From a virus, in the IMG/VR virus record IMGVR_UViG_3300028835_001449, positions 6,859-70,858 of that record: a stretch of 64,000 nt of DNA, one strand, 5' to 3'. Of this stretch, positions 20,761 to 46,778 are shown one piece after another (the first letter of the stretch is position 1; the number at the start of each line of letters is the position of its first letter). Position numbers and translations under genes: made by a program. Below the pieces are notes generated by a model. It did not search any database and was not told the origin of the DNA. It was given only the letters and a program-made list of their open reading frames with translations.

Positions 20761-21456
20761 TTACGCCCAAAACGTCGGAGCCTTCTTCGACTCCACTGTC
20801 ATGGCATCATAAAACTTCTTCTCCAATGTCCGAGCATCCTTCAGCTCTGGGTCTGACAGCGTCCACGGAAACTGTCCTCCCGTATGGGAAATTGCACTCA
20901 ACCGTTTCTGTCTCCTCGCCCTCACTTTTAACGCCTGAGATATGGCGTACCACACGATAAACTTCTCGAACCTATCCTTACACAATGCCAAAGTCCAAGC
21001 CTTAATATAAATGTAATATACCCTATCGCCTGTTGTTGATGGCGGAGGAAGCAACCATAATTTTTCCGTTGCCTCGTTCCAATCCCAATCGGCTCGATCT
21101 GCTATCTGCTGAGCCTTCAACGCATCGACATACTGCGTTACCTGATCGAGCATAACATCATAACCCTCGGCTGGAAACTCAACGTCAAACTCACCGCCGA
21201 AAATGTCTGCCATTGTGGCTCGTCCACCTGCCCAACCGACAAATACCACCTCTATTGCATCTTCGTGGACAGAATAGTCCGGCTGATCACCTACTGTTTC
21301 TATATACGACGTCGCCCAGTTTGGAATGTACCTATCGAACTCTTCTAAAGCTTCGGCGATCCAATTCTCGATATTAGCGTCTGGAACAATATCAACTGGC
21401 GGCTTTCCCGCTTCTAGCCTTATCCTTGTTACTAGTGCGCTTGCGTCCAGTCCCAC
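20761..21456 (-). CDS. Head-tail adaptor / neck protein
   Basis: First neck gene; IAEALEEFDRY, LWLLPPP; AAGGAGG RBS. Confidence 0.65.
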   Translation of the reverse strand: MGLDASALVTRIRLEAGKPPVDIVPDANIENWIAEALEEFDRYIPNWATSYIETVGDQPDYSVHEDAIEVVFVGWAGGRATMADIFGGEFDVEFPAEGYDVMLDQVTQYVDALKAQQIADRADWDWNEATEKLWLLPPPSTTGDRVYYIYIKAWTLALCKDRFEKFIVWYAISQALKVRARRQKRLSAISHTGGQFPWTLSDPELKDARTLEKKFYDAMTVESKKAPTFWA

Positions 21457-21643
21457 GGCGTGACCTCCTTAACTTCGGATTCGGATTTTCGGCCAACCTA
21501 ATGCGAATAATTTCACCGACTTTACCGGGCAAAATATGTACTGGATTGCCCATGGCATCATAAAAGACTTGCTCCACCTTTGTTTTGTTTTTATACTTCT
21601 CTTTATAATACTCATAACCTTCTCGAGCAACTTGCTTTGCCAC
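21392..21643 (-). CDS. Small basic protein carrying the shared YxNx5QVxYDx4Px4PG motif
   Basis: GTG start with GGAGG, downstream of a class B promoter; YKNKTKVEQVFYDAMGNPVHILPGK. Confidence 0.7.
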   Translation of the reverse strand: MAKQVAREGYEYYKEKYKNKTKVEQVFYDAMGNPVHILPGKVGEIIRIRLAENPNPKLRRSRRGTGRKRTSNKDKARSGKAAS

Positions 21644-21663
21644 CTGACACCTCCTTCAAAAAT

Positions 21664-21692
21664 AATATCACACAAAGGATTGCAGTTTGCAA
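21664..21692 (-). promoter_or_regulatory. Phage promoter class B (TTGCAA-ACTGCAAT...-GATATT)
   Basis: Same motif and 17-nt spacing at 42815, 46798 and 50586. Confidence 0.7.
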
Positions 21693-21702
21693 CCCTAGCG
21701 TC

Positions 21703-22788
21703 CTAAATATAATTGAGACTCATGCCGTCTTTATTAATACATTTTTCAACTAATTCATTGACAATACACACTTCACACCTCGGACATGCCCTCGGAACGA
21801 TTCTAGTTAAAAGCTCACGATGACTCTTCGAACCCCACCGCTTTAAAAATGCTTCAAATGGATACCACTTGCCTAACGAGAACTCCTCGTCTCCACGCCG
21901 ATCAGGACATGGATGGAACTTGCCATCGGCGCCCAGCACGCCAATTAACGGCGTTGCATAACATTTCCTGAACCGAATCGCCCTATTCCATTCCCGCTCT
22001 ACTTTATGTACTATGCCGTAAATATGAAAAGTCTCATCCTCTAATTCTTTCCGGGCTTCTCTGAGATAATACTCGGACTGCTTTCTCATTCCCTGTGAAA
22101 ACCTATAACGTGAAAGGTATATCGGACGAATAAGAGCTATGTCTGCGCCCATTGTCTTCGCCAAATCACAGAATCCAAACTGTTCATTGAAAGTAGTATG
22201 ATGAATAAGAAAACACATTGTTATTTTGGGACGGCCATCATCTCCCCTGTTCTGAGCCAGCCAACGAATATTAGTCATTACCTTGTCAAAATAATCGAGT
22301 CCTGCCTTCTTAACTCTCAAATACGTTGTTGAAGTTGCGGCATCAACCGAAAACTCGACCCATTCAACATACTTCAGCACGGCCTTTCTAATACCATCCT
22401 TTTCCAAACACAAGCCATTTGTCTTTATTCCGACACGTATACTGTTCTTATCTAGCTCCTTCAAAAAATCTACAATCCGAGGGTGAAACAATGGTTCACC
22501 ACCAGAGAGTACAACATTCTTCACTCCCCACTCTTTTAAAAATACTGGAATTTCGAGCAACCGAACATCGGAGATTGACGTCAGATTTGACGACCTGTAA
22601 TCCTTATACTCGCACCATGAACAATGAACATTGCAGAGATTTGTAGGGTCAATTGTTAACGTGACTGGCGGTTGAAGGTTCTCTTCTGCGCCATTTACCC
22701 ACCTAACCGCGGCTTCGATCCGCTCTCTATGTGCCAAAGCCTTCATACTATTATAAGGATTATAAACATTTATCATTTCTTTCCACAT
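21703..22788 (-). CDS. Radical SAM enzyme with SPASM/Twitch domain
   Basis: CNVHCSWC; SGGEP; C-terminal CY...ADG...PC...CPRC. Confidence 0.9.
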   Translation of the reverse strand: MWKEMINVYNPYNSMKALAHRERIEAAVRWVNGAEENLQPPVTLTIDPTNLCNVHCSWCEYKDYRSSNLTSISDVRLLEIPVFLKEWGVKNVVLSGGEPLFHPRIVDFLKELDKNSIRVGIKTNGLCLEKDGIRKAVLKYVEWVEFSVDAATSTTYLRVKKAGLDYFDKVMTNIRWLAQNRGDDGRPKITMCFLIHHTTFNEQFGFCDLAKTMGADIALIRPIYLSRYRFSQGMRKQSEYYLREARKELEDETFHIYGIVHKVEREWNRAIRFRKCYATPLIGVLGADGKFHPCPDRRGDEEFSLGKWYPFEAFLKRWGSKSHRELLTRIVPRACPRCEVCIVNELVEKCINKDGMSLNYI

Positions 22789-22886
22789 TGCCTATACCTC
22801 CAATATTCGTCAAACCCGTAAACTCAGGGTCAATTATATGACTATCGTTCGCCTATGCTCCTCTCCTGCCCAAATTCACGCTATTT

Positions 22887-23837
22887 TTACCACCTCTCGA
22901 TGGCTGGAGCATAGTTTTCCTTGAACCATCGAATAGTCCACGAAAGTCCTTCTTCCAATGCTGTGTCCGGAGTCCAGTGAAGGACGTCTTTCATCCTGGT
23001 AATATCAAAAACCTTCGCCTTCGCACCTTCGGGCTTTGACGTATCCCACTTGACCTCACCTTCATACTCTACTAGCTTTTTTATATAATACACAAGCAGC
23101 TTGATTGCTGTGCCGATGCCTGTTCCTATATTTAATGGTATTGGTTCATCATACTTTTCTGTTGCTCGAAGAATACCTTCTGCAGCGTCATCAACAAACA
23201 AGAACTCACGAACAGGATTTCCAGTTCCCCAAACTGGCACAGTTAATGAGTTATTCTTTTGGGCTTCAACGAACTTTCGAATAAGCGCTGCTACGACGTG
23301 TGACCGCTCTGTATTATATGAATCCCATGGACCATAAAGATTTGCTAACATAACATGAATTCCATTGAACCCGAACTGTTGCCTGTAAGCATTGCATTGA
23401 ATAACCATCATCTTCTTCACTGCTCCGTAGCACGCAACTGAACCGTGACACGGACCCTTCCATAAATCCTTCTCCTGCATTGAGCCTGAAACCTCGCCTG
23501 GATATGAGCAAGCTGTTCCTACGCCTACGAACTTCTTTACATTAGCCTTCGCACATGCATCAATAACATTTGTCTGCATTGACATATTCGTAAAATAAAT
23601 ATCTGCTGGTATCTTCATATTAATCTCGATTCCTCCATAAAGTGCGGCTGAATGGATGACAATCTCGGGATGAAAAACTTCAATCATTTCCTCTGCTCTA
23701 TTCTTATCCATCAAATCATAATCGGCGCTCCTTGGAATAGCTACGTGTGCACCCCTATCCTCCAATTTCTTGACAATAACCCTGCCTAAAAAGCCAGAGC
23801 CACCTGTTACCAAAACCTTTTTGTCTTTTAATTTCAT
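22887..23837 (-). CDS. fcl: GDP-L-fucose synthase-like epimerase/reductase
   Basis: TGGSGFLG, YGGIEIN, GTACSYP, YGAVK, NLYGP, SHVVAALIRK, VWGTGNPVREFLFVDD; likely start at 23837. Confidence 0.85.
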   Translation of the reverse strand: MKLKDKKVLVTGGSGFLGRVIVKKLEDRGAHVAIPRSADYDLMDKNRAEEMIEVFHPEIVIHSAALYGGIEINMKIPADIYFTNMSMQTNVIDACAKANVKKFVGVGTACSYPGEVSGSMQEKDLWKGPCHGSVACYGAVKKMMVIQCNAYRQQFGFNGIHVMLANLYGPWDSYNTERSHVVAALIRKFVEAQKNNSLTVPVWGTGNPVREFLFVDDAAEGILRATEKYDEPIPLNIGTGIGTAIKLLVYYIKKLVEYEGEVKWDTSKPEGAKAKVFDITRMKDVLHWTPDTALEEGLSWTIRWFKENYAPAIERW

Positions 23838-23974
23838 GTCTGCCTCACAAAGCTCCATACCCCGAGCACTACAAGCACAAGTAATATCCATCGTGCGGTG
23901 TCGGGATAGAGCATTCCAAAGAATCCGCACAGCACTAAAATAACTATGCTTACCTCATTTTCGGTTATCTTCAT
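23834..23974 (-). CDS. Small two-TM membrane protein (46 aa, absent from ORF track)
   Basis: MKITENEVSIVILVLCGFFGMLYPDTARWILLVLVVLGVWSFVRQT; GAGG RBS; ATGA overlap with fcl. Confidence 0.55.
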   Translation of the reverse strand: MKITENEVSIVILVLCGFFGMLYPDTARWILLVLVVLGVWSFVRQT

Positions 23975-23984
23975 ACTGCCTCGG

Positions 23985-24170
23985 CTATTCACAGTTGATG
24001 ATGCGGACATCCGAACACTTCTCTTTCAAGCCCGGGAACTGCTTGTAGAACGCCTTGTACAAATTCTTCAGCTTCCTGTCATCCGCTTCCGATGCCGGCA
24101 TCCGCCTCACCGGCTTGGCGGGCACCCTCGTTGTTATCATTACCTTAATGTTCGATGTTGTTGTTGTCAT
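23985..24170 (-). CDS. Hypothetical protein
   Basis: GGAGG RBS, co-oriented. Confidence 0.5.
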   Translation of the reverse strand: MTTTTSNIKVMITTRVPAKPVRRMPASEADDRKLKNLYKAFYKQFPGLKEKCSDVRIINCE

Positions 24171-24178
24171 TCTTCCTC

Positions 24179-25120
24179 CTACACATTTGAATATTGAGGC
24201 TTTGGTTCGAAAGACTGAAACAGATCGATAAGCTGTGAAACTCCCGTTTCCAAACTCACAGTCGTTTCGAATCCCAGAGCTTCTATTTTCTCGGAGCTGA
24301 CTTCGTAGTCCCGTTGATCTTCGTCCCTTCCAAAGTCGGCGTAGTGCAAATAATACTTCACTTTCTTCTTGATAAACTCCGCCACCTGACGCTTCGTTAA
24401 ATTCAGGTCTACCGAGCCGATGTTAAAAACCTCACCTTGCATTTTTTCAATGTTCTGAATCGCAAAAAGGATCGCCCTGGCCATGTCCAGCACGTGCACA
24501 AACGCTCGTCGATAATCCGCCTCGTAGACAACCAGATTCTTCTCTTTCACAGCCTTGTAGCAGAAGTCATTCACCATCAAATCAAGCCTCATCCTCGGAG
24601 ACACTCCGTATCCAGTAGCAAATCTAAGGACAATAGAGTTCTCTCTCTCCCTGACCGCCTCCTCAGCTAAAACTTTTGTATCACCATAGACAGTGAGAGG
24701 ATCTAACGGCAAAGCTTCTACACAAACCTCTGTTTTCTTCCCATAGCACGAGTCCGTCGAAGCCAGTATGATTGGAGCTTCCTTATTCGCCGTACCACAC
24801 ACAGTCCGTGTGCCACCAACATTGACTTCGAGAGCTTCCCGTTCGAACTTCTTACAAATCGGGAACCCAACGAGAGCCGCTAAATGCACAATGATAGCGC
24901 AATCCTCAACACGTTTCTCAAGGGCGCCGGAATCTCTGACATCCCCCTTCACAAACTCAAAGTTTTTATGCAGGAAGCACGCTAAAAGCCCGTCAACTCC
25001 CCACATCAGACTGTCGTACACTCGCACTTTGTGTCCTGCTTGCAGAAGCATAGGCACAAGCACGGAGCCGACAAACCCCGCTCCACCAGTTACTAAAATT
25101 CTCATTTGCTTCTCTCCCAT
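24179..25120 (-). CDS. NAD-dependent NDP-sugar epimerase/dehydratase
   Basis: TGGAGFVG, HLAALVG, YGDTK, RMRLDLMVNDF, DQRDYEVS. Confidence 0.9.
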   Translation of the reverse strand: MGEKQMRILVTGGAGFVGSVLVPMLLQAGHKVRVYDSLMWGVDGLLACFLHKNFEFVKGDVRDSGALEKRVEDCAIIVHLAALVGFPICKKFEREALEVNVGGTRTVCGTANKEAPIILASTDSCYGKKTEVCVEALPLDPLTVYGDTKVLAEEAVRERENSIVLRFATGYGVSPRMRLDLMVNDFCYKAVKEKNLVVYEADYRRAFVHVLDMARAILFAIQNIEKMQGEVFNIGSVDLNLTKRQVAEFIKKKVKYYLHYADFGRDEDQRDYEVSSEKIEALGFETTVSLETGVSQLIDLFQSFEPKPQYSNV

Positions 25121-26025
25121 TCAATGATTTTATCTAAAGCATTTTCAAGACGCCCAAACCCAAACCTCATTAACTTAAACAATTCACTCAAGTTCGCCAC
25201 CCGACCACGCACATCTTCAAACCCTTCAGGGTACACCTGATCATATGGCACAAGCACAATGTCCGACTTGCTCTTTGCCCCCGCCTTGATCAGCTCAGCC
25301 AGCTCCAAAATGGAGATGCCACAGTTGCTTCCAACATCGAGGGTCTTGCCTTTGCTCTCAGGAATGGATCCAAGGCGATCGAGCACCCGCACAGTATCTT
25401 CCACCGGGCAGAAGCTTCGTGTCTGCCGCCCATCTCCGTAAACTGTTATCGGTTCACCCATCGTTGCCTGTCGTACAAACCTCGGCACTACCATCCCGTA
25501 TGACCCTGCCTGTCTGGTACCGATCGTATTAAAAATTCTGACAATGCTCACATCGAGACCATACTTCTTAGCATAGGACAAAGTCAAAGCTTCTGCTGTC
25601 AGCTTACTGAGAGCGTAGTTCCAACGGGTGAAGTTGAACGGCCTCCCTGCCTCCAAACTGTAGACCTCCGAGCTTGAAGCTATTACCACCTTTTGATGGG
25701 GAGCCAAATTCTCCAAAACGTAGCCCGTCCCGAATACATTTACTTTCATAACTTGATAGGGGTCTTCCATGACCTTCAGCATCCCCACAACGGCGGCCAA
25801 ATGGTAGATACGATCCGCCCATTTCACAAGGTCTTCCAACTCTGGGGAGAAGATGTCTTCCTCAATGAATTTAAAATTGTGATGGTTCATAGCTTGCAGT
25901 AAATTAGCTTTTGTGCCCGTGCTCAGATCATCAATAACGGACACAACATCGCCTTTAGCCAGATGATAATCCGTCAGATGTGATCCAATGAATCCAGCAC
26001 CGCCAGTTATCAGAACTTTCATCAT
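25102..26025 (-). CDS. NAD-dependent NDP-sugar epimerase/dehydratase (second)
   Basis: TGGAGFIGSH, ASSSEVY, YALSK, GMVVPRF, YGDGRQTRSF; start approximate. Confidence 0.9.
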   Translation of the reverse strand: MMKVLITGGAGFIGSHLTDYHLAKGDVVSVIDDLSTGTKANLLQAMNHHNFKFIEEDIFSPELEDLVKWADRIYHLAAVVGMLKVMEDPYQVMKVNVFGTGYVLENLAPHQKVVIASSSEVYSLEAGRPFNFTRWNYALSKLTAEALTLSYAKKYGLDVSIVRIFNTIGTRQAGSYGMVVPRFVRQATMGEPITVYGDGRQTRSFCPVEDTVRVLDRLGSIPESKGKTLDVGSNCGISILELAELIKAGAKSKSDIVLVPYDQVYPEGFEDVRGRVANLSELFKLMRFGFGRLENALDKIIEWERSK

Positions 26026-26768
26026 CCCTCCTCCGAATATCCCATGAACGACATTATCTCCCCCGCCCATGACCAGAACTTTTTATTCATGGCCGGTGAG
26101 AACTCATCCTTCCAGCCACCAGACAAGCCTCTCAATCCGAGTTTGCGAGGATCAACTCCTTCTGAAGCACGACGCTTCAACAATCGGCTATACCTTGTCC
26201 TCTCCACAGCCTGCTTAATAATTCGCAAACTCGTTTTTAATTTTGTAAACTTAACAACCTTCCTCGTTATAGCAAGGGGGTCTGCCAACAAGTCCTCGTA
26301 CTTTACCATTAATGATTCAACACCTATCCATCCTCGAAGCCAAAAAGTAACGTGCACTTTCCACGACCCAAAAGGCATCATCCCGGGGATGAACTTATCA
26401 ATGAGAAATTGCTTGAAGGACATTGACGAATGAACCGTACCCTGCCATAAGCCAAAATGATAACATGAGAGAGCAACATCCCTCCCATCCCTATAGCTAT
26501 AGACTGCGTTTGGATATTTGAGGTAATACGATATCATATCGAAATGACATTTCACAAAGACGGGGTTGTACGAGTACGACTGGGCCACAATATCAGACCA
26601 ACCCCGCTGATGAGCATCTGGTATAAACTTATCAATATCAAGATACCCACAGTCGACTTCCGGGTGCTGAATGTTTGCGAGGAGAAGTCTCAGCCACGTG
26701 TTCCCCGAGCGGGGATAAGACACCAGCCAAATGAACTTCTCCACTACTTTCTCCTTATGAGTATCCAC
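26022..26768 (-). CDS. PAPS-dependent sulfotransferase (Sulfotransfer_1 type)
   Basis: 5'-PSB SYPRSGNTW, 3'-PB YRDGRDVALS, KYEDL, RG..GGWKDEFS. Confidence 0.9.
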   Translation of the reverse strand: MDTHKEKVVEKFIWLVSYPRSGNTWLRLLLANIQHPEVDCGYLDIDKFIPDAHQRGWSDIVAQSYSYNPVFVKCHFDMISYYLKYPNAVYSYRDGRDVALSCYHFGLWQGTVHSSMSFKQFLIDKFIPGMMPFGSWKVHVTFWLRGWIGVESLMVKYEDLLADPLAITRKVVKFTKLKTSLRIIKQAVERTRYSRLLKRRASEGVDPRKLGLRGLSGGWKDEFSPAMNKKFWSWAGEIMSFMGYSEEG

Positions 26769-27352
26769 GTCTGTCTGCCCGGATGATAAACAGGCAAAAT
26801 TCTCATGGTCAAGTTATGTTTTTCAATGATTGCCCTCATAGTGACAGGCCGATAAAATGCCCCCGACTGATTCCATTCCTTCCCTCCATAATCTACCTTA
26901 CCCTCAGAATAAGTCGCAAGAAAAATCGTTTCTGGCTTCATAGCTTTGTACGCAGACTCCAAAGATTTGTCAATTTGCTGTTTCGGCATATGTGCAAACA
27001 CAGATTGAGCCATGATGTAGTCGAAATTTCTTTTAAAGATAAACATATCGCAGGCATCCGAAATTTCTAAGTAAGGTGTCTTCTCTCTAACGAGTTCTGT
27101 CAAACAGTTATGCTTTATTCCCTCAGTCACAAGGTCACGTTTTGGTTCTATCCCATAGTAGTTGCCACGATCAAGATACTGAATCGCAAAGCGTCCGAAT
27201 CTCAAACTTCCACACCCGAAATCCAATAGACTGTGATAATGTCTCATTCCCAACGTGAAAAGATGAAAGAACTGCAACGCTCCCTGAGTGTCGTACCATT
27301 CTATCGGTCCAACGTATCTCCTCCAATCGATCACTACTTTCTCCTTGCTCAT
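26744..27352 (-). CDS. Class I SAM-dependent methyltransferase
   Basis: LLDFGCGSLRFG, FDYIMAQSVFAH. Confidence 0.88.
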   Translation of the reverse strand: MSKEKVVIDWRRYVGPIEWYDTQGALQFFHLFTLGMRHYHSLLDFGCGSLRFGRFAIQYLDRGNYYGIEPKRDLVTEGIKHNCLTELVREKTPYLEISDACDMFIFKRNFDYIMAQSVFAHMPKQQIDKSLESAYKAMKPETIFLATYSEGKVDYGGKEWNQSGAFYRPVTMRAIIEKHNLTMRILPVYHPGRQTWILIRRK

Positions 27353-27912
27353 TTCTTCACCACCGCCCCTATTCCCATGTATGATGGCTTGAATGAGAAT
27401 ACCACCTTCATATATCTCCCCTCGTCTCTCATTATCTCACCGAATAGGATTCTGACCTCGTGATTCGCCTCGTGATGCATTACGTCGTGAAAGGCAACGA
27501 TGTGTTCGGTCAGTGGTTCGTACATCTCATAGTCTCTCTTAACTGATTGATAGTGATGATCCGCGTCTATGAAAAGAAGATTGATCAGCCTGCCTCCCAA
27601 CTTCCTCTTCAATTTATTTAATGTTTCCTCGCTATGCGTATCGCCATGTATGTCTGGATTGTACTTGAGAGCATTGTCAATTCCAATGTGCTCTGCTCCC
27701 AAGAACTCCTCATAAAACTTTTTCTGACAATTATTTGCCACGCCCAACTCCACCACGATCGGATGTTCAACGCCTCTATTCTTAAAATAAGCTTCCGCAA
27801 ACTCAAGAAAGCTCTGCCACTCCTCCGGCTGTTGCCAAAGTTTTGCTTTGCTCACTGAAATTTTAAGTCGTTCGATGTTCATTCTACCAATCTCAAAATA
27901 GCTGTGGATCAC
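27349..27912 (-). CDS. SAM-dependent methyltransferase (Methyltransf_24-like)
   Basis: VVELGV, LLFIDADHHYQSVKRD, VAFHD. Confidence 0.85.
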   Translation of the reverse strand: MIHSYFEIGRMNIERLKISVSKAKLWQQPEEWQSFLEFAEAYFKNRGVEHPIVVELGVANNCQKKFYEEFLGAEHIGIDNALKYNPDIHGDTHSEETLNKLKRKLGGRLINLLFIDADHHYQSVKRDYEMYEPLTEHIVAFHDVMHHEANHEVRILFGEIMRDEGRYMKVVFSFKPSYMGIGAVVKK

Positions 27913-29173
27913 AAAGATGTTTCTCGCACTCCCTCCTTATCTCCTCCTCCGTAATAAAATGATGCTGAACAGTCAGCTTCCGCTCAAGATTGTAGCGACT
28001 CTGCCGCTCCCTCCGCCCCTTGATACGCCTTTTTATAGCCATATCCACATCAGCCATCGCCCAGTGAGCTCCCAAAAACTTCTCTGCGGAAACTACAACC
28101 CTTTCATTTGGCTTATACGAATGGCAACCCGGAGACCACTCTATCCCGACTTCCGGCCGAACTATAATCGGCTTGGTGTACATCTTATTTATACCCGCCG
28201 TCACGTTCGGATCCCCGTGACGTCTCTGAAGCACCGCAGGTTTGGATGAATCCAAATCTTTATCAGTTTCATGCCTATACACCTGCCACATCTGAGCGTG
28301 CAGCAAATTGGCTTTCTCCCTCATGAGGACGGGCATTGCATGTCCCTTAGCAGGAAATATGAACTCGTCCGCGTCTACAGCAAATACCCAATCACCCTTC
28401 ATTTTGCAAACGACTTCGTTCACCTTTCGAACCTTCAGATCATCGTTCATCATGTCGGGAAACGTAAAATCCTCAATCTCAACGTTTGCATACTGCCCGC
28501 ATACCGCTCTCGTATTATCGCTCGAATCTGTGTCCAATAACAAATGAACTCTATCAACCCATCCGTAATGGTTAAGAAAAAGTGGGGCCAAGAAAGCTTC
28601 GTTGTACCACATAGTCACCACCCCAAACTCCATCCGTTTCTCTACCCATGCCAATAGATAGTGACTGCCATCTGGTTGAAGAAGCAACTCATCTACAGCC
28701 TTTCGCACACCGGGATGCGCCATTCCCACCTTACCTACCGACACCGGTGAATGATAATCATGGAACACCATCAATCCTCCTCTCTTCAACTTGGGCCAAG
28801 AAAGAAGAATATCGCGTTTCACACTTTCATAGTCATGCGCCCCATCAATGAACACAAGATCGCAGTTAACTTTTAACCCCGGCAAGACATCCTCGGACTT
28901 TCCGACGTGATACACGATATTAGGCCAGCCTTTAATATTGCCTTCAAAAGCATTTAATGTGGTGAATTCCAGAGCTTGAATTTCGCTGCCTTTCGTGCCC
29001 TTAAACGTATCGACCGCATATACCTTTTTTGCCACCTCGGCCATTGCTAGAGTCGACCTCCCATGATAGCTGCCTATTTCGAGGCAAACTTTATCCTTGC
29101 CCAATTCCTGTAATTTCAAACACTCAGGAGTATAGACATACCCATGCACACCTCGAAATGGTTTTCTACTCAT
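27893..29173 (-). CDS. Fusion: Methyltransf_24-like + GT-A (GT2-like) glycosyltransferase
   Basis: LEIGSYHGRS, FIDGAHDYESV, FHDY; then YNEA..L..FL.HY, DTDSSDNT, VDADEF. Confidence 0.85.
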   Translation of the reverse strand: MSRKPFRGVHGYVYTPECLKLQELGKDKVCLEIGSYHGRSTLAMAEVAKKVYAVDTFKGTKGSEIQALEFTTLNAFEGNIKGWPNIVYHVGKSEDVLPGLKVNCDLVFIDGAHDYESVKRDILLSWPKLKRGGLMVFHDYHSPVSVGKVGMAHPGVRKAVDELLLQPDGSHYLLAWVEKRMEFGVVTMWYNEAFLAPLFLNHYGWVDRVHLLLDTDSSDNTRAVCGQYANVEIEDFTFPDMMNDDLKVRKVNEVVCKMKGDWVFAVDADEFIFPAKGHAMPVLMREKANLLHAQMWQVYRHETDKDLDSSKPAVLQRRHGDPNVTAGINKMYTKPIIVRPEVGIEWSPGCHSYKPNERVVVSAEKFLGAHWAMADVDMAIKRRIKGRRERQSRYNLERKLTVQHHFITEEEIRRECEKHLCDPQLF

Positions 29174-39266: not shown

Positions 39267-40192
39267 ACCTTTGCCTTCGGCACTCTCATGCAGTCGATAT
39301 TCATATGACAGGTATCAGCCTTTTCAAAACATGGAGTGCATCCCACCATTTCACTCATTGACACTTCAGATACCCCGTCGGGGAAGAGCGGATGATAACA
39401 CAGCCGTTCCTTCCCACGGGTCGGACCTGACAGGAAAACAACGGGGGTACGATAGAAATGTGCAATCCAAAGCGGCGCCGTGTCCATAGTTATAACTGCT
39501 CGTGCCTGCCTAATCTTATCCAATAACTCTTGCTCTGGAATATGTTGATTATGATTGATATGACAAACCTTGTTAAACCGTGAAACCAGTTTTTTCTCAA
39601 TGTATGATGCTGTTTCATCTTCCAAAGCTTTCTTACGTGTATTGCCCGCAGAACAGAAGACCACACCATGCTTACCCGGTGAAATTTCTTCCTCGTTCCA
39701 CACGGGCAACTCCCCCGATTTAAGTCCAAGAAATTCCCGATAGATGTCAACCCTGTGCTTTACTGAGTATTTTGGGTCTTGATGGTCCCGTTCTAAAATG
39801 TCATTGAGTATAATCCCCACATCATAGTGCTTGGGGTTTGTGTAAATCCTGTAGGAAATGGCATTAAAGACATCTCCTGATAGCTCTCTTAGAATAATGC
39901 TCGTCATGAAACGCCCACTTGTGACTAATACTACCTTTGACCCCGAGTATTTATCCTTGAACTCCCGCATAACAGGAATGAGCATAAGGATATCCCCCAA
40001 AGCATAGCTTCGAACAATTACATACGTTAAATTTGGTTTTAAATAGGGCGTTATCTTATCAATACGATGAACATTTGGAATTGATGGCGGTGACGGCTGG
40101 ATATCTACAATAAAATGTGGCGGAACCTCAATGGGTTCTCTGTTCTCATTATAAAACACCTGCAGACCGTTACCGTTGTAAATCACCAGCAC
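39218..40192 (-). CDS. GT9 (heptosyltransferase-like) glycosyltransferase with shared N-terminal motif
   Basis: RSYALGDILM, MDTAPLWIA, LSGPT, CTPC...C...CM. Confidence 0.85.
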   Translation of the reverse strand: MLVIYNGNGLQVFYNENREPIEVPPHFIVDIQPSPPSIPNVHRIDKITPYLKPNLTYVIVRSYALGDILMLIPVMREFKDKYSGSKVVLVTSGRFMTSIILRELSGDVFNAISYRIYTNPKHYDVGIILNDILERDHQDPKYSVKHRVDIYREFLGLKSGELPVWNEEEISPGKHGVVFCSAGNTRKKALEDETASYIEKKLVSRFNKVCHINHNQHIPEQELLDKIRQARAVITMDTAPLWIAHFYRTPVVFLSGPTRGKERLCYHPLFPDGVSEVSMSEMVGCTPCFEKADTCHMNIDCMRVPKAKVWEAVNSALEKVMWKS

Positions 40193-40205: not shown

Positions 40206-40239
40206 CAGAGAGGACTCCCTGCGAAAGAAGTCCTCTCGC
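40206..40239 (-). terminator. Hairpin downstream of major capsid gene (weak intrinsic terminator)
   Basis: GAGAGGACT...AGTCCTCTC inverted repeat, poor U-tract on minus strand. Confidence 0.6.
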
Positions 40240-40275: not shown

Positions 40276-41493
40276 TTACGAGCTGGATATGTTGATAGTT
40301 GCCAAGCCGTCTTTGATAAGAGTTCCGTATGCAAATCGACTCATCAATCCCTTGCGGGGGATGAAGTCATTAGGGTCAACAATCTTCGGGGTCATATAGA
40401 GTGGAATGTACGGAGAGAAGAATCCAACTGCATCTGTCCAAGTCGAACCTTTATAACCCATCAGCATAGTTCCTGGATTAGCCCAATACGGATCTTTGTA
40501 AACGTTGAACCTGTTATTGAGTGTTCCTTCTAAAACTCTGCCAATCGAACCTGTGGTTGTGTCTGGTGATTCGGTGTATTTGAACTCTTCGAGCTTTTCG
40601 AGCCTGACAATGTCATCGGGATGACCGATGATCCAAGTTCCTGGTCTGTAGCGTTTCTTGAAAATGAGATTTGAGCAGTCACACACTGCTTCATACAGAG
40701 TTTTCTTATAGGCTGTTCGATCAATGGTTTTGACATCCTGAGTGAGCCATCCACTTGGGTTCCAGGTAACGGTTCCGGCACCTGTACCACTTCCACTTCC
40801 AGTTCCACCTGCACCTGCTAAGAGAGCGGCAATAACAAGACCATCGATTTCTCGAATGATCTGATCCTGCAGAGCTTTCATAAGTTCTGTTTCTGCACTG
40901 AGCCTGTGATATGCCATTAAGTCTTGCTCTAACTCAATGGTCCATTTCGCTTTCAGAGCCTTTTCAATTGCACTGATGGTTTCGTCGGTTATCTCCAGAT
41001 CGAGTTCTTTTACGGCAGCTCCGGCTTTGGTTTCGACTCTGGTGGCATAGTCTTTGTCACGAACATCGGCAACGGAATCCGCAGCACTTCCACCTGATGG
41101 TGCTGTGGTATACGTGAAGTCGAGATAGAAAATTTTAGCATCGGGTTGAGAAATGGGCTGAATTGACACTAAATCCATGGCAATCAGCTTGGCAAAGATT
41201 TTTCTGACAAGGGGCATAGCAATGGTAACGAACGAAGAGATGTCACCCGTCCATGTGGTTGCTTCGTCGATCATGGCATTGGCTTGGTTTTCCAAGCACC
41301 GAGCTAGAACATAATCCTTGCTATCGAGGTCTTTCTCCCTGATAGCATTCTGATCGAGGTCTTCTGTCAACGCTTCATAACTGTCACCGAAGAATTTTAC
41401 GGGGTCCTCCTTGAGCAATGCGAGTTCGGGGTTCTCATCCATCTGAGATTCATACCGGGCTTTGAATCTGTCTGTGGCTGTTGATCGCTTCAT
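40276..41493 (-). CDS. Major capsid protein, T4 gp23-like
   Basis: PLVRKIF..LIAMDLVSIQP...IFYL, LKAKWTIELEQDL..YH...AETEL...IIREID, FSPYIPL, DF.PRKGLMSRFA. Confidence 0.93.
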   Translation of the reverse strand: MKRSTATDRFKARYESQMDENPELALLKEDPVKFFGDSYEALTEDLDQNAIREKDLDSKDYVLARCLENQANAMIDEATTWTGDISSFVTIAMPLVRKIFAKLIAMDLVSIQPISQPDAKIFYLDFTYTTAPSGGSAADSVADVRDKDYATRVETKAGAAVKELDLEITDETISAIEKALKAKWTIELEQDLMAYHRLSAETELMKALQDQIIREIDGLVIAALLAGAGGTGSGSGTGAGTVTWNPSGWLTQDVKTIDRTAYKKTLYEAVCDCSNLIFKKRYRPGTWIIGHPDDIVRLEKLEEFKYTESPDTTTGSIGRVLEGTLNNRFNVYKDPYWANPGTMLMGYKGSTWTDAVGFFSPYIPLYMTPKIVDPNDFIPRKGLMSRFAYGTLIKDGLATINISSS

Positions 41494-42794
41494 TATTTTT
41501 CCTCCTTCTTCTTGGATTTGATACCGGCGCGAGCTTTAACCCGCTCCTTAATGCCATCACCTTCGGCTACTTCCTCTTCGGTTTCATGTTCACCTTTACC
41601 TTTACCCTTTGGTTCACCATTCTCCTTCTCAAGAGCTGTGATGAGTTCGGTATAAGTTTTGAGACCCTCATCGACGTCCTCAATGGTTTTGCAGTCCTTC
41701 AACTTATCCCTCAACACATCCTTGAGAGGATGCTTCTCGGTTTTCACTAACAAATGAGCCTGGGCTTCATCCTTTGCCTTTTCTTTTTCGAGTTCGGCGA
41801 GTTTGTCTTCCTTTGTTTTTAAGGCCGCCTTGTTTGCTTCAGCCTCCCGCTCGAGTTCTACTACCTTCAATTTTGCAGCTGCGAGGATTTCATCTTCTGT
41901 CTCACCTTCAGATTCTGCTTTAAGATATTCTCCGCTTCGAAGCAAGTCAACAATGGATTCAATGGTTGCAAGATGACGCTCTATTTCGGCATCCTTTTCT
42001 GTCACTTCGGCTTCAAGGTCAGTAATACGAGTTTCGCATGCTGTCTTTTCTCCTTCGAGCTTGGTTATCGCTTTCTGCTCATCAGTCGACTCTGCCTCTT
42101 TTTCAACCTCTTTCTTGATGGTTTTGCGCTCTTCTTCGATGATTTCCTTTAAGGCATCGGGATTTTCCTTCCTCAGCTCATCGGCAGTTAAATCTTTTAA
42201 TTCTTTCTTCATTGGAGTCTCCTCCGTATCTAAATTTTGTTCCAGTGCCTGCTCAATGACCTTTGTTACACGGGCATTTCGCACACTAGGATCGATTACA
42301 AAATCGATCGAATCAAACCTATACCCTAGTTGTATTACCGAAACATCACCTACACCTTTTATCTTAGTTGATTTTGACTGTCCTTTACCTCTAGACGAGA
42401 AGCCTGGCCTTCCGCCAGCTCTCAATATTTCCTGAATAATTTCACCCTGTGGGGTGTTAAAAACGAGCATTTCCCCCATCAACTTGTTTGACTCTGCATC
42501 CTTCCACCACAATTTCCTGAGAAGATGGGATGAATCACCTAACTTTCCTCTCCATTCTGGATGATCTACCTCGCCAAATACACGACCACTTGCCATCTTC
42601 TGCTTTGCCGCTCTCATAGCTTCGGCGAGAACGGCTTTTGGATACTTTCGCTTATTTTGATTTACAATCTCAGCTTCTTGAACAACCCCCTGTACACGCA
42701 TACGTTTTTCGCCTGACTCTTCATCTTCCTCCTCGTCGAACGTCAAGTCAGACCAATAAATATCACGTATCTCTATAATCTTCTCACCGTCCAT
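41493..42794 (-). CDS. Prohead protease (T4 gp21-like) fused to coiled-coil scaffold region
   Basis: QGVVQEAEIVNQNKRKYP, GEVDHP, NTPQG, GFSSRGKG, DFVIDPS; charged coiled-coil C-terminal half. Confidence 0.88.
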   Translation of the reverse strand: MDGEKIIEIRDIYWSDLTFDEEEDEESGEKRMRVQGVVQEAEIVNQNKRKYPKAVLAEAMRAAKQKMASGRVFGEVDHPEWRGKLGDSSHLLRKLWWKDAESNKLMGEMLVFNTPQGEIIQEILRAGGRPGFSSRGKGQSKSTKIKGVGDVSVIQLGYRFDSIDFVIDPSVRNARVTKVIEQALEQNLDTEETPMKKELKDLTADELRKENPDALKEIIEEERKTIKKEVEKEAESTDEQKAITKLEGEKTACETRITDLEAEVTEKDAEIERHLATIESIVDLLRSGEYLKAESEGETEDEILAAAKLKVVELEREAEANKAALKTKEDKLAELEKEKAKDEAQAHLLVKTEKHPLKDVLRDKLKDCKTIEDVDEGLKTYTELITALEKENGEPKGKGKGEHETEEEVAEGDGIKERVKARAGIKSKKKEEK

Positions 42795-42814: not shown

Positions 42815-42843
42815 AGATTTCCAGAACACATTGCAGTTGTCAA
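42815..42843 (-). promoter_or_regulatory. Phage promoter class B (TTGACA-ACTGCAAT...-AAATCT)
   Basis: Upstream of protease/MCP; motif shared with three other sites. Confidence 0.7.
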
Positions 42844-42875
42844 CCTTTTCCTAAATAAACCGTCAACCTCCTACC

Positions 42876-42943: not shown

Positions 42944-42955
42944 TTTAGCCTCCTT

Positions 42956-43465: not shown

Positions 43466-43469
43466 CTTA

Positions 43470-43916: not shown

Positions 43917-43931
43917 CGAGCCTCACTAAAA

Positions 43932-44429
43932 TTAAGACTCAGGTGTGTCTTCGTAGTCTGCTTCCATCTTGCCATCTGCTTTTCGAACGATGTAATTGAC
44001 TCTGTGTTCACCTACGACCGGCTCGGACTTGACTAACTTCAAGTCAACTGGACTCAGTGCAGCTTCACGAGTGATCGGAACGGCGGCGGTATTGATCTGC
44101 CCCACTACCTCATCGTCAGTCGGGCTTACTTCTGCGCCCTCTTCGATTCCAGTCAACTTGGTATCTTTGGTGTCGGTAAAAGCGTTTGGCTCTGCTTCAT
44201 AAGCTGTTTTGATCTCTGCTCCACTCTGATCTACTTGCGCGCCATCCTCGATACCATCAAGCTTGGTCTCTTTTACCGTTGTGATCTTCTGGAAGTCGGC
44301 GCTCTCTTTAAGTGCGGGGTCTTCAATCGCATCCACACGGGTAATAGGAACGGCGGCGGTGTTAACCTTTCCAACGATCTCATCATCCGTATAAGACTGC
44401 GCATTTGGGTCTAGTGTCATTTTACCCAT
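43932..44429 (-). CDS. Putative head fibre protein with internal repeats
   Basis: TDDE[IV]VG..NTAAVPITR x2; TKL.GIE.GA.V x2. Confidence 0.6.
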   Translation of the reverse strand: MGKMTLDPNAQSYTDDEIVGKVNTAAVPITRVDAIEDPALKESADFQKITTVKETKLDGIEDGAQVDQSGAEIKTAYEAEPNAFTDTKDTKLTGIEEGAEVSPTDDEVVGQINTAAVPITREAALSPVDLKLVKSEPVVGEHRVNYIVRKADGKMEADYEDTPES

Positions 44430-44463
44430 TTTAAAGCCTCCTTATAAAATTTTGTCAACCAAC

Positions 44464-44703
44464 CTACACCGGCGTATCGTCAAATACCACCTCAAACCGC
44501 CTCGTCTCTGGATTCCAATAGAAATTTTTTACCGCTTGCATACCGATCGGGGGATAGGACTTCACTGTGGGAGCCCCATTGGGAGGAACTTCGTCCTCCA
44601 TGCTCAGCCATTTTGTCTCGCCCGGTTGCAACGTATGTGGATTCATCCACTGATCATAATAGACCTGTGGACTCAGCGTATCGTTATTATACTCTTTTAG
44701 CAG
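44464..44703 (-). CDS. 79-aa protein with shared N-terminal motif; CTG start
   Basis: GGAGG-6nt-CTG at 44703, in frame with ORF 44464..44646; gives MLKEYNNDTLSPQVYYDQWMNPHTLQPGET. Confidence 0.72.
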   Translation of the reverse strand: MLKEYNNDTLSPQVYYDQWMNPHTLQPGETKWLSMEDEVPPNGAPTVKSYPPIGMQAVKNFYWNPETRRFEVVFDDTPV

Positions 44704-44723
44704 TTTTAACCTCCAAGCGTCTG

Positions 44724-45443
44724 CTAATCTAAAAGTGACTTCACAGCAATTGCCACCACAACGAGCAAAACGCCTCCACCTGCTCCCTTAAATAAAGAGG
44801 CTGTCCGGGCACGCTTGCTCGCTTTCAACGCAATCGCACAATTCGTCTGCACAATCTCACTATCCGTCAACCTTTTTGCCCAGGCCGCATTATTCTCGTC
44901 CCAAGACTTCTTAACACTTATCTTGAATTCCTCCATCTCCTGCCTCAACCCGGCTGTTGTTTCCAACTCCGTCTCGTACAGAGCCTTGTACTTACCCCTA
45001 TCCTTGAACACGGCCAGCGTCAGCTCTGCGCCCTTCCGGGTCGATAAAAAGAAGCCCGAGTTTGTCAGCGTGAACTCATTGCCGACAACCTTGTTCAGCT
45101 CAAACACGACCTCATCATCGCCCGCTTCGGCAATCGCTTCTAAGGACTCCTCATACTTTTCTTCGATTGCCTCTTTTTCGGCATTTGCTTTTGCCACAAT
45201 CTCATCTGCTACACGAGTAACGCCTTCGAGCTTTTCATTGAACTTGGTATTGATATCTGCTTTCTCCTTCTTCCACGCCCCCTTATCGGTATCATACTTC
45301 TCCTGAAGAGCCTTAGCCCTGCCCTCCATCACGTACGCTTTGGTGCTGATGTTGTTCAGAATGAAATAGCCAATGATGAGTATGATCACAACGACAGCAA
45401 TTTCAAAGATCGTACGTTTGATATTCTTTGTCATTGCCTTCAC
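44724..45443 (-). CDS. Membrane-anchored coiled-coil protein (spanin-like)
   Basis: N-terminal TM, long coiled coil, C-terminal hydrophobic helix; adjacent to small TM genes. Confidence 0.5.
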   Translation of the reverse strand: MKAMTKNIKRTIFEIAVVVIILIIGYFILNNISTKAYVMEGRAKALQEKYDTDKGAWKKEKADINTKFNEKLEGVTRVADEIVAKANAEKEAIEEKYEESLEAIAEAGDDEVVFELNKVVGNEFTLTNSGFFLSTRKGAELTLAVFKDRGKYKALYETELETTAGLRQEMEEFKISVKKSWDENNAAWAKRLTDSEIVQTNCAIALKASKRARTASLFKGAGGGVLLVVVAIAVKSLLD

Positions 45444-45446
45444 CTC

Positions 45447-45818
45447 CTATTTGGATTTCCTCTTACTTTCAATCTTACCAAACCTCTTCTCACATTTGAG
45501 CACTTGGTCGGCATACTTCTGAGGAATTTCTGCTAGCTTGTCTGTCACTTCCTTTAACTCTTTCCGCTGTGTTTCCTTGTTCGCAACAAAAAAGTCCACC
45601 TGCGTCTTCACGATGCCCAGATCAACCTTGCACTGCCCCATATCAGTACTCACGCCATCAAGTTTCTCCTCAATTCTCTTCAGTGGGTCATCAGCTTCCG
45701 ACCCCGGATTCTTCCTCATCCTGTTCAATATCCAACGAACGAAATTAAACACCTCTTTCAGAATCAACAACGCTATTCCTGTTCCGATTACTGCGGCTAC
45801 CGTCCTGCTAATTTCCAT
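45447..45818 (-). CDS. Single-TM coiled-coil protein (holin/antiholin-like)
   Basis: N-terminal TM then charged coiled coil. Confidence 0.45.
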   Translation of the reverse strand: MEISRTVAAVIGTGIALLILKEVFNFVRWILNRMRKNPGSEADDPLKRIEEKLDGVSTDMGQCKVDLGIVKTQVDFFVANKETQRKELKEVTDKLAEIPQKYADQVLKCEKRFGKIESKRKSK

Positions 45819-46036
45819 TACTTCTTCCCCAAGACATCAGTAAATGTCAGGCAACCATCTATAATGCCAACCAACCCAACGCATAGTATCGAGAACTTGA
45901 ACCAATCTCCCGATGTGTCGTTTGTAATTTTTGCAAGTGCATACGCAATTATCGTGAGCACTAACGCCAGAACCCCCATCTTAATCCTTCGGTTTCTCTC
46001 TTCATTGTTTTTCATCTTTCCTCCTTTGGAAATCAT
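45818..46036 (-). CDS. Two-TM protein (holin candidate)
   Basis: Two hydrophobic helices, charged termini. Confidence 0.5.
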   Translation of the reverse strand: MISKGGKMKNNEERNRRIKMGVLALVLTIIAYALAKITNDTSGDWFKFSILCVGLVGIIDGCLTFTDVLGKK

Positions 46037-46097
46037 TCTCTATCAATGAGCTCATGCCAAATCATGCACAGAGCCGCAACCGCTCTGCCCTCCTCGA

Positions 46098-46778
46098 TTA
46101 TTCCATATCTGTCATCTCCTTCCATTTCAATCTGAGACTCCCCTCATTGTTATCGGCATAAGACATCGCCCTCACCAAATACTTCGTATTCTGCTTTAGA
46201 ACAACCCCGACGCGCTGAGACTCATCTGCCGCTTTTGCCGCTACTTCAGTTGCTATACAACACGCAGCGTCGGCCTTGTCCACTGTGGCTCCCTTCGTGA
46301 TAGTAAGCCCTGATTCGCCACTGCTCAAATTTCTATTTCTATTTACGGGCACTACGGCAACTCCTCCCGACACATCAAACTTAGAAGGATCGCCTCCATC
46401 TTCAAACAATTCCCAATACGCAGGAGTATTCGCGTCACAAAAGATACTTAGGTGAGCCCATTTGAGAGTGTCTGGCACTATGATGTAAAATGTTAATGGA
46501 GCGTCCATATCAAATTCATCGAGGGCGGTTCTCTGACTTACCATAAACGCATTTCCTTCGTGTACCGCATTTTGCATGATACTCGCTGTAATCAAAGCAA
46601 AAGAGGATGCAGCGAGTCTCGGATATTGATACGTCGCCCCTGTATACCCACGAGGGGCTCCGCCTCCTGGATCTGTCTCATATGTTATAGTCTCACCCGG
46701 TTCCGCCATATGTGGAATGCCATACTGATCATATCTGACCTGCCGAATACTCGTATTATTCCTGTAAGAAACTGTCAT
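46098..46778 (-). CDS. Putative virion protein with shared N-terminal motif + beta-rich domain
   Basis: YRNNTSIRQVRYDQYGIPHMAEPGE; HEGNAF, PVNRNR, VLKQNTKYLVR. Confidence 0.65.
   Translation of the reverse strand: MTVSYRNNTSIRQVRYDQYGIPHMAEPGETITYETDPGGGAPRGYTGATYQYPRLAASSFALITASIMQNAVHEGNAFMVSQRTALDEFDMDAPLTFYIIVPDTLKWAHLSIFCDANTPAYWELFEDGGDPSKFDVSGGVAVVPVNRNRNLSSGESGLTITKGATVDKADAACCIATEVAAKAADESQRVGVVLKQNTKYLVRAMSYADNNEGSLRLKWKEMTDME

Follow-up and report, generated by a model that had tools for sequence, protein, structure and literature searches.

The head module and its tagged genes

The window, a stretch of 64,000 nucleotides of viral DNA, contains five minus-strand genes whose products are otherwise unrelated but share one short sequence, here called the tag. 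The five (m1 to m5) and the head genes around them are listed in base-pair order.

20761-21456, minus: head-tail adaptor (Pfam PF24175 SU10_adaptor, E 9.3e-07)
21392-21643, minus: m1, 83-aa protein, GTG start; tag core 21521-21595
21679-21692: 14-mer TTGRCAACYGCAAT with two mismatches
21703-36335, minus: glycan-synthesis island, untagged (profile matches)
36417-39266, minus: m2, GT9-GT2-GT9 triple transferase; tag 39087-39161 (Pfam PF01075, E 2.3e-26, two stretches; PF00535, E 3.3e-08)
39218-40192, minus: m3, GT9-like transferase, first gene after the capsid gene; degenerate tag 40118-40183
40276-41493, minus: major capsid protein, gp23-like (Pfam PF07068, E 7.2e-55; PHROG 138)
41493-42794, minus: prohead protease (S77, gp21-like) with an acidic coiled-coil C-terminal half (Pfam PF03420, E 1e-17; PHROG 207, E 2e-34)
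42830-42843: further copy of the 14-mer
44464-44703, minus: m4, 79-aa protein; tag 44617-44691
46098-46778, minus: m5, 226-aa protein; tag 46692-46766, then a low-confidence linker and a jelly-roll body (AlphaFold2)
46813-46826, minus: perfect copy of the 14-mer upstream of m5
50601-50614: further copy of the 14-mer

The m1 gene lies directly upstream of the adaptor gene and has a homologue in P0019; its tag core is followed by a basic tail, and the whole protein has a pI of 10.5. The two genes that follow the gp23-like gene are both carriers, m3 and then m2, as an earlier note on this DNA had reported; the degenerate tag of m3 lacks both N-x-T and PGE. Judged from its homologues, m2 likely starts at the GTG at 39230, which would give a protein of 937 aa. 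The same note had read m4 as an ORF with a CTG start, and this is probably correct: the frame offers no ATG, GTG, or TTG further upstream, the CTG sits 6 nt past GGAGG, and the homologue P0029, which is 84% identical, begins MLKEF (P0045 and P0060 are also homologues). Both m4 and m5 are placed between the portal and protease genes, and membrane proteins are encoded between them. The 14-mer is perfect upstream of the portal, m5, and protease genes. The suggestion that two carriers follow class B promoters is borne out in part, in that this candidate element stands before m5 and, with two mismatches, before m1; with two mismatches allowed there are six matches in total, a number equalled in 2 of 100 shuffles.

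The island encodes two radical-SAM enzymes, three enzymes of epimerase/dehydratase type, two sulfotransferases, and two sulfatase-like proteins, together with methyltransferases, GT2 enzymes, and an rfaE-domain-II-like adenylyltransferase of the heptose-1-phosphate type. Among the enzymes of the window, only the transferases adjoining the capsid gene are tagged; none of the island GT2, sugar-nucleotide, or sulfo- and methyl-transfer enzymes is. The capsid protein itself has a likely maturation site with a conserved [LIM]-x-E.

Sequence and predicted fold of the tag

A six-frame translation scan gave four matches to the strict pattern and five to a looser core, i.e., four strict copies and one degenerate copy in the window, all on the minus strand. 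In 200 nucleotide and 200 residue shuffles there were no strict matches, and the mean for the loose core was 0.005-0.02, which bears out the observation that five otherwise unrelated proteins start with one motif. The remaining 6.9 kb of the 70.9-kb contig contained no additional copy. Synonymous positions differ among the five DNA segments, and the likeness is therefore held by selection on the protein and not due to recent duplication.

AlphaFold2, given a deep alignment, predicts a four-stranded beta-meander for the tag of ~34 residues (m4 model, pLDDT 80-85). A low-confidence stretch follows the tag in both modelled carriers, covering residues 44-51 of m4 (pLDDT < 50) and residues 32-52 of m5 (< 50, with a body at > 90). 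The tag is absent from 25 of the 27 aligned members of the m5 jelly-roll family, and it is thus portable. On these models, the motif forms the central part of a portable module of ~34 residues that folds by itself and is N-terminal in most carriers.

The motif had not been recognised as a named family, and the databases agree: m1, m4, and m5 matched no family in Pfam, PHROGs, or NCBIfam, and none of 22 tag segments scanned against curated profiles at E <= 10 matched a common family. The motif resembles the RHS/YD repeat (x-Y-D-x-x-G-N-P), but none of the 22 segments matched the RHS repeat profile at E <= 10, and this identity was rejected.

Distribution of the tag

The tag is a conserved, portable, N-terminal module, restricted to one phage lineage and found in head and neck gene modules. 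Its profile matched 60 of 1.84 billion proteins, and 53 of these are genuine carriers; the other seven are repeat proteins in which only half of the motif is matched, at several places. Two proteins with repeated YDENGNPI units were judged false matches. The tag lies within the first 39 residues in 50 of the 53 carriers and is internal in three. With this one profile, it was detected on at least eight unrelated bodies, including GT9, GT9-GT2-GT9, and GT4 transferases, small basic or helical proteins, and jelly-roll proteins; as the earlier note expected, the matches (53/60) sit at the N-termini of glycosyltransferases and small proteins and are no catalytic sub-domains. Carrier P0009 has two tags in tandem, and tandem copies are common among binding modules. 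In carrier P0035, the tag is preceded by a signal-peptide-like N-terminus, which fits poorly with docking during a cytoplasmic capsid assembly.

Where contexts could be read, carriers lie in head and neck modules beside gp23-like capsid, protease, or adaptor genes, again as anticipated. The exception is the complete genome G005, in which two tagged LamG-like proteins follow tail-fibre-like genes; the target of the tag may therefore not be the capsid. All carriers come from a single clade of uncultured phages whose capsid protein is gp23-like, and no cultured phage was found with the tag or with a relative of m2. Among 33 capsid-anchored IMG/VR loci, a tag is present in the seven whose capsid protein shares 39-67% identity with that of the window, whereas the 26 with a capsid protein <= 37% identical have no tag at E <= 0.01.

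Within the clade, the conserved gene order is protease, major capsid protein, GT9 with a tag-like N-terminus, glycan genes, small tagged protein, and adaptor. Genomes G001-G005 and loci L015 and L019 all have a small tagged protein in the slot before the adaptor. Of 45 metagenome loci, 38 were confirmed, and in 18 metagenome loci a small tagged ORF stands immediately upstream of an adaptor homologue. Even without a mechanism, the tag marks a clade of uncultured phages with ~100-kb genomes that give 10-18 kb of their head module to glycan chemistry, including sulfation.

The tagged transferases and the N-x-T loop

By profile and by matches to solved enzymes, m2 and m3 are assigned to glycosyltransferase family 9. 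Alone, m3 scores 16.7 bits against Pfam GT9, under the 22-bit cut-off; its family profile matches WaaF (1PSW, E 7.5e-10), 3TOV (5e-9), and TibC (4RAP, 2.4e-5). The alignment of WaaF to the phage GT9 profile begins only at profile position 60, and the tag and linker are thus an extension of the catalytic fold, in line with the claim that GT9 domains do not need them. For TibC, the alignment to the m3 profile starts at position 50 of the profile, corresponding to residue 90 of the TibC chain. A cluster of four cysteines follows the GPT motif in all three GT9 modules of the window (m3 and both in m2), and those of m3 (C285, C288, C295, and C301) are invariant in 10 m3 relatives.

TibC is a protein O-heptosyltransferase that uses a four-cysteine iron finger (Cys339/342/358/370) in substrate recognition and has an N-terminal barrel of two four-stranded sheets spanning 97 residues (PMC4358343). 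TibC and AAH (the BAHT enzymes) act on protein and combine a GT9-like core with an N-terminal module rich in beta strands and a metal finger of four cysteines (PMC4358343). The phage enzymes are similar in their GT9-like core and predicted beta-stranded N-terminal module, and their four-cysteine clusters, in the corresponding region, are candidate counterparts of the finger. They differ in that the cysteine spacing in m3 and m2 is not that of TibC and the finger region did not align; in addition, the phage module is a single predicted four-stranded sheet of ~34 residues, not a 97-residue barrel, and occurs on non-enzymes too. Because the m3 family scores WaaF above TibC, the link to protein-modifying GT9 enzymes is one of architecture alone.

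The tag also has an acceptor-type sequon, N-x-[ST], at a fixed position in an exposed loop that AlphaFold2 places between the first two strands. Nearly all non-transferase carriers retain it (53 of 57), whereas transferase carriers do so far less often (12 of 22; Fisher p 2e-4, uncorrected for relatedness and with transferase labels assigned partly by eye). Tagged transferases might recognise their substrates via the tag, the exposed loop being the glycosylation site or lying beside it. A transferase tag would then pair with a substrate tag, two four-stranded sheets packing as they do in the TibC N-terminal barrel, and the tagged proteins would be phage glycoproteins, whether or not the tag also docked them on the capsid. 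We consider this rather unlikely, although it is the main rival to the docking reading preferred below, and several observations agree with it: the contrast in sequon retention, the invariant cysteines, the heptose-1-phosphate type adenylyltransferase of the island, and the fact that in G002-G004 what is conserved at a minimum is one tagged GT9 together with one small tagged protein. In addition, TibC has its iron finger for substrate recognition and, where m3 has tag and linker, its two-sheet barrel (PMC4358343). Against this, WaaF outscores TibC, and there is no evident need for one N-terminal glycan on lectin-like, peptidase, and helical cargo alike. Two contigs also argue against it, although both are short. 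L023 has the major capsid protein gene, a tagged 64-aa ORF, and the adaptor gene with no transferase between; L048 encodes a transferase-like protein, NeuA, and NeuB, with no small tagged ORF before the adaptor, within 19 kb. The tag-like N-terminus of the L048 protein was identified by eye only and is missed by the profile, but should it be a genuine tag, each type of carrier can occur without the other, a point in favour of a third-party target.

Proposed docking at a common target

The reading that we prefer, tentatively but as a real possibility, is that the tag is such a portable docking module, bringing transferases and cargo to a common target on the virion, probably the capsid. All carriers would be led to a single virion-associated site, most likely the outer surface of the capsid or prohead. 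Variable cargo (basic tails, helical proteins, jelly-roll or lectin-like domains, and a peptidase) would be displayed there, and the protein-acting transferases (GT9, GT9-GT2-GT9, GT4, and others) would be concentrated at the same place, with the untagged island enzymes only making or modifying sugars. What we infer is that the tag binds a partner, that this partner is the capsid, and that the virion is glycosylated. Note that docking alone leaves the N-x-T pattern unexplained, i.e., strongly conserved in non-enzymes (53/57) and often lost in transferases (kept in 12/22).

A different destination is conceivable, in that the tag may route its carriers to the scaffolding core; like the T4 internal proteins, they would then be enclosed in the head and leave it together with the DNA on ejection. 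The capsid protein and protease are of T4 type, m4 and m5 lie between the portal and protease genes, where T4 has its prohead-core genes, and carriers of the m1 type have very basic tails, as do DNA-associated internal proteins. The T4 internal proteins are themselves diverse and have in common only a conserved targeting sequence (PMC3012670). We nevertheless give this very little credence. The tag is a predicted folded module of ~34 residues and not a short peptide; it has no conserved [LIM]-x-E, and the position after PG can be E, Q, K, F, or G; three of the 53 carriers have the tag internally, and one has two in tandem. Jelly-roll or lectin-like cargo is a poor fit inside a head, as are transferases whose sugar donors are made only late in infection.

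It is also improbable, in our judgment, that the partner of the tag lies outside the virion (for example, a host factor, chaperone, or the cell envelope) or that the tag does no more than make its carriers oligomerise. The signal-peptide-like leader of P0035 and the membrane proteins encoded between m5 and m4 would suit such a partner. However, the carriers are confined to the head, neck, and tail-fibre modules of one phage lineage, and a host-directed role would not predict a fixed slot between the capsid-side genes and the adaptor.

Docking and substrate recognition could finally be combined, the tag being both address and acceptor. TibC-like GT9 enzymes would capture tagged proteins by tag-to-tag pairing in a two-sheet beta-sandwich and add a heptose-based glycan, further sulfated and methylated, on the N-x-T loop; the glycan-bearing tag, or the tag itself, would then fix the protein on the capsid. 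This is quite improbable, but if it were true, a phage would possess protein glycosylation and virion display directed by a genetically encoded tag of 34 residues.

Comparison with known systems

The T4 capsid-targeting sequence (CTS) is a peptide of ~10 residues removed by the prohead protease after Glu. On the internal proteins IPI-III, a shared N-terminal CTS gives a common destination in head assembly (PMC3012670). The tag is similar in being an N-terminal element common to dissimilar proteins, in a phage whose head genes are of gp23 and gp21 type. Unlike the CTS, it is sometimes internal or tandem and is also found on glycosyltransferases; a T4-type CTS with a prohead-protease site ([LI]-x-E) was rejected on the four-strand predicted fold and the lack of a conserved [LIM]-x-E.

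In the virion glycosylation cassettes of mycobacteriophages, glycosyltransferase genes adjoin the capsid gene, suggesting a glycosylated virion, and the same adjacency is seen here. The island of the window is far larger (~15 kb), with sulfotransferases and radical-SAM enzymes, and we know of no tag described in those cassettes as common to enzymes and structural proteins. Nor, to our knowledge, has the tag been described in print, the literature having been searched on related concepts and not on the motif itself. If the tag is a docking or glycosylation handle, this would be the first known phage in which a single short folded module labels both the enzymes that modify proteins and an exchangeable range of structural or cargo proteins. 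The targeting of glycosylation to a phage's own virion would then become testable, and the 34-residue tag could be used for capsid display or directed glycosylation.

Decoration genes often sit near the capsid gene, and so do the small tagged genes. In T5 pb10 and T4 Hoc, a small capsid-binding domain is joined to variable display domains (PMC5292684, PMC10385173), and the build of the carriers is likewise modular. The tag has no detectable sequence or fold likeness to decoration proteins of the pb10/Hoc type, and it differs from them in that one tag serves many bodies per genome, enzymes included, with a binding to the capsid that is only presumed. Gene position and modular build are what speaks for the carriers as putative capsid decoration proteins with a separate capsid-binding domain.

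A shared N-terminal tag

Of a phage contig 70.9 kb long, the window covers 64 kb, and almost every gene in it is encoded on the minus strand. The earlier note reported that five otherwise unrelated proteins in the window begin with the same motif, Y-x-N-x5-Q-V-x-Y-D-x4-P-x4-P-G-[EK]; it proves to be the core of a tag of ~34 residues. All five copies were recovered, and four of them fit the pattern and its spacing exactly; the degenerate m3 copy is missing two residues before the Q and has also lost PGE.

Motif copies and head genes in the window
~21521-21595, minus strand: motif of m1, an 83-aa protein
~39087-39161, minus strand: motif of m2, a GT9-GT2-GT9 transferase
~40118-40183, minus strand: motif of m3, a GT9 transferase
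~44617-44691, minus strand: motif of m4, a 79-aa protein
~46692-46766, minus strand: motif of m5, a 226-aa protein
48884-50524: portal
41493-42794: prohead protease, S77/gp21-type, with an acidic coiled-coil tail
40276-41493: major capsid protein (MCP), gp23-type
20761-21456: head-tail adaptor, SU10-type

The strict motif was matched in 0/200 nucleotide shuffles and 0/200 residue shuffles, and the remainder of the contig holds no further copy. The DNA of the five segments is identical only where the residues force identity, so the conservation is old and acts at the protein level; because synonymous sites differ, a DNA-level or regulatory cause of the shared segment was rejected. No standard start codon precedes the motif in m4, but with a CTG placed 6 nt downstream of GGAGG, and MLKEF as the first residues of a homologue that is 84% identical, the CTG start proposed earlier is reasonable. 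For m2, homologues point to the GTG at 39230 as the probable start, giving 937 aa.

Head genes and glycan island

Between the MCP gene and the adaptor lie m3 and m2, both GT9-type transferases, followed by a ~15-kb island of untagged glycan genes. The island encodes GT2 enzymes and methyltransferases, three epimerase/dehydratase-type enzymes, and two each of sulfotransferases, sulfatase-like proteins, and radical-SAM enzymes, together with an rfaE-domain-II-like heptose-1-phosphate adenylyltransferase; a GDP-fucose-synthase-like enzyme is encoded there. This content suggests that its product is a sulfated, methylated, heptose-containing glycan. The island (21703-36335) sits inside the head module, with the capsid-adjacent transferases on one side and neck genes on the other.

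Identity of the capsid protein to that of the nearest cultured phages is only ~34%, and megablast with 11 kb of the window found no DNA-level relative in the phage collection. By tblastn against cultured phages, m2 gave only two weak matches, in its GT2 region, and m4 gave four chance-level matches at E <= 10; the best-looking of these, in Marinobacter phage PS3 (E 5), lacked the motif when its sequence was read.

Several further features of this region were recorded. The 14-mer TTGRCAACYGCAAT occurs at 50601-50614, 46813-46826, and 42830-42843, preceding the start codons of m5 and the protease by ~35-40 nt and that of the portal by ~77 nt, and ahead of m1 there is a copy with two mismatches (21679-21692). 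The 14-mer is a possible late promoter or operator of the phage. With two mismatches allowed it has six matches in total, a number equalled in 2/100 shuffles. A 13-bp terminator-like stem-loop at 40208-40237, between the MCP stop and the m3 start, may lower transferase expression relative to that of the capsid protein. Between m5 and m4 (44724-46036), within the portal-to-protease region, three proteins of 72, 123, and 239 aa have hydrophobic segments resembling membrane spans, the largest with one at both ends and a coiled-coil middle; their weak PHROG matches are spanin-like and tape-measure-like. Just downstream of m4, an acidic 165-aa protein (43935-44429) carries an internal repeat (DDEIVG.VNTAAVPITR) and weakly matches tail-fibre PHROGs, and an m4-like gene also adjoins its homologue in metagenome locus L063. 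Residues ~229-241 of the MCP form a Gly/Ser/Thr-rich insertion (GTGSGSGTG-like), present among six aligned MCPs only in the window phage and in the complete genome G005, which could form a loop at the surface and offer a candidate site for O-glycosylation.

Distribution of the tag

Degenerate DNA patterns located the tag in seven further IMG/VR contigs. A profile built from 15 tags and searched against 1.84 billion representative proteins at E <= 0.001 gave 60 matches, 53 of them genuine; the other seven (P0016, P0039, P0041, P0050, P0052, P0056, and P0058) are repeat proteins in which half of the motif matched several times, and they were set aside. The tag falls within the first 39 residues of 50/53 genuine carriers and is internal in three. 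P0009 carries its tag twice in tandem, ahead of an HExxH peptidase-like body, and P0035 has a hydrophobic leader resembling a signal peptide ahead of its tag.

Cargo is diverse. It comprises m1-like proteins with basic tails, a helical family of 110-120 aa, m4-like proteins, an m5-like jelly-roll protein, beta-rich proteins of 286-291 aa, GT9 and GT9-GT2-GT9 enzymes, and one GT4 enzyme (by Pfam). By eye, tag-like N-termini are also found on a GT2-GT4 giant, a GT2-GT9 enzyme, and a TagF-like protein. The tag, which the earlier note did not recognise as a named family, is unmatched in Pfam, PHROGs, and NCBIfam; a likeness to YD repeats was unsupported by the profile scan. An ESM Atlas search with m4 returned unnamed viral clusters, its top score of 0.85 lying below the tool's trust level.

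Among 33 IMG/VR loci retrieved by way of the capsid protein, the tag (E <= 0.01) occurs in seven, exactly those with an MCP 39-67% identical to that of the window; none of the 26 loci with an MCP identity of 37% or less has a tag at this threshold. A recurring order of protease, MCP, GT9 with a tag-like N-terminus, 0 to ~12 glycan genes, small tagged protein, and adaptor is found in G001-G005, L015, and L019. G005, at 100.8 kb with terminal repeats, has five tags, and its two tagged beta-rich proteins come after tail-fibre-like genes. The pairing of transferase and small tagged protein is broken at two loci. In L023 a tagged 64-aa ORF, and no transferase, stands between the MCP and the adaptor, and in L048 the order is MCP, TagF-like protein, NeuA-like protein, NeuB, and adaptor, with no small tagged ORF; the tag-like N-terminus of the TagF-like protein was seen by eye only and was undetected by the tag profile. 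From its genes, L048 looks like a nonulosonic-acid version of the recurring layout; its segment 9330-11966 belongs to a contig that was assigned to a Deltaproteobacteria MAG by binning.

A pattern scan of metagenome contigs yielded 45 loci; the profile confirmed the tag in 38, leaving seven without a confirmed tag. For eighteen small tagged ORFs the next gene downstream is an adaptor homologue, and others follow a protease homologue or stand alongside m4- or m5-like genes. The tag is thus mostly N-terminal, on transferases and small proteins, and in the IMG/VR and metagenome loci read for gene order it lies mainly among head and neck genes, the outcome that the earlier note had predicted for its sequence test. 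The idea that m1 is a radical-SAM/RiPP leader was dropped because the radical-SAM gene upstream is not constant: besides the window, only G001, G005, L015, and some metagenome loci, few in number, have it ahead of the m1-type gene, the upstream gene in G002-G004 being GT9-like or an FkbM-type methyltransferase.

Fold and function of the tag

The tag is portable with respect to the body that it precedes. The m5 body family has 31 matches, and 27 rows were aligned: m5 (the query, P0061), P0032, and 25 of the 30 non-self matches (all but P0070, P0072, P0073, P0080, and P0084). In this alignment the tag is confined to m5 and P0032. In the untagged relatives P0062, P0064, P0065, P0067, and P0068 another conserved stretch stands at the N-terminus, [KR]-[IVW]-[KR]-[WF]-x-[WYL]-[DN] ... 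Y-[SD]-Y-[NE], which may be an alternative module of other phage lineages.

In the AF2 model of m5, the tag is a weak hairpin, the linker behind it (residues 32-52) has low confidence, and the jelly-roll body has a pLDDT above 90. The m4 model, from a 41-row alignment centred on the tag, gives the tag a pLDDT of 80-85 and predicts four strands (residues 2-6, 13-16, 22-25, and 30-34), with N7-x-T9 in the strand 1-2 loop and P-G-E in the strand 3-4 turn. Foldseek found no PDB match to the m5 model at E <= 0.001, and VIA-align wide found only generic jelly-rolls, the best being XepA (Z 8.5, rmsd 2.9, 105 residues aligned), a score within the tool's stated background. For m4, the best BFVD match was at E 0.17 and the best VIA-align wide Z was 3.0. 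These searches gave the predicted models no convincing fold relatives, which does not imply that the folds are novel.

The tag is a real, conserved, and apparently undescribed module, and its function is a well-posed and testable question. The docking role proposed in the earlier note is the best available reading: the tag would bring cargo domains and protein-acting transferases to a common virion-associated site, probably the capsid surface. We rate this reading as somewhat less likely than not, though likelier than any one of its rivals. It accounts for the place of the carriers in head modules, for a small carrier whose slot is like that of a decoration gene, for the low-confidence stretch that follows the tag in the m4 and m5 models, for cargo of many kinds and the tandem copy in P0009, for tagging confined to those transferases that adjoin the capsid gene, and for loci where one kind of carrier or the other is seemingly alone (one of these tags being assigned by eye only). 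A complex prediction pairing the tag (40 residues, 22 rows) with mature MCP residues 77-405 (10-row alignment) and with the full m3 GT9 (10 rows) scored 0.08 and 0.00 against a mark of 0.32, without controls, and speaks neither for nor against any of these readings. Binding of the tag to a partner outside the virion is judged improbable. Least probable of all, and in our view very unlikely, is that the tag is a T4-style internal targeting sequence, as it is predicted to be a folded module, is without the [LIM]-x-E site found at the point where the capsid protein probably matures, and carries cargo suited to the particle exterior.

What docking alone leaves unexplained is an asymmetry in the tags. 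N-x-[ST] occurs at a fixed position in 53/57 distinct non-transferase tags against 12/22 transferase tags (Fisher p 2e-4, ignoring shared ancestry, with transferase labels assigned partly by eye or length and P0001, P0031, and P0036 labelled without a scan); in m3-type tags it is P-[RH]-F-x-x-D, behind the core, that is kept instead. Mainly for this reason, some weight is kept for the rather unlikely alternative that the tag is the substrate handle of the transferases, modification falling on the N-x-T loop and tag-to-tag pairing being a possible route.

Comparison of the tagged transferases with WaaF and TibC

For the TRANSFERASES, the alignment of WaaF to the m3-family profile begins only at profile position 60, and the tag and linker are therefore an extension of the GT9 catalytic fold. 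TibC aligns from profile position 50, its residue 90. The published description (PMC4358343) gives TibC an N-terminal barrel (residues 1-97) built from two sheets of four strands each, and a four-cysteine iron finger (Cys339/342/358/370) that serves dimerisation and substrate recognition. All three GT9 modules of the window have a four-cysteine cluster past the GPT motif: both modules of m2 (36420-39230), and m3 (~39221-40192), among whose relatives C285, C288, C295, and C301 are invariant. These clusters recall the iron finger described there, but their cysteine spacing differs from that of TibC, and the m3-family profile scores WaaF better than TibC. What m2 and m3 appear to share with TibC is a likeness of build, which falls short of showing that they belong to its family.
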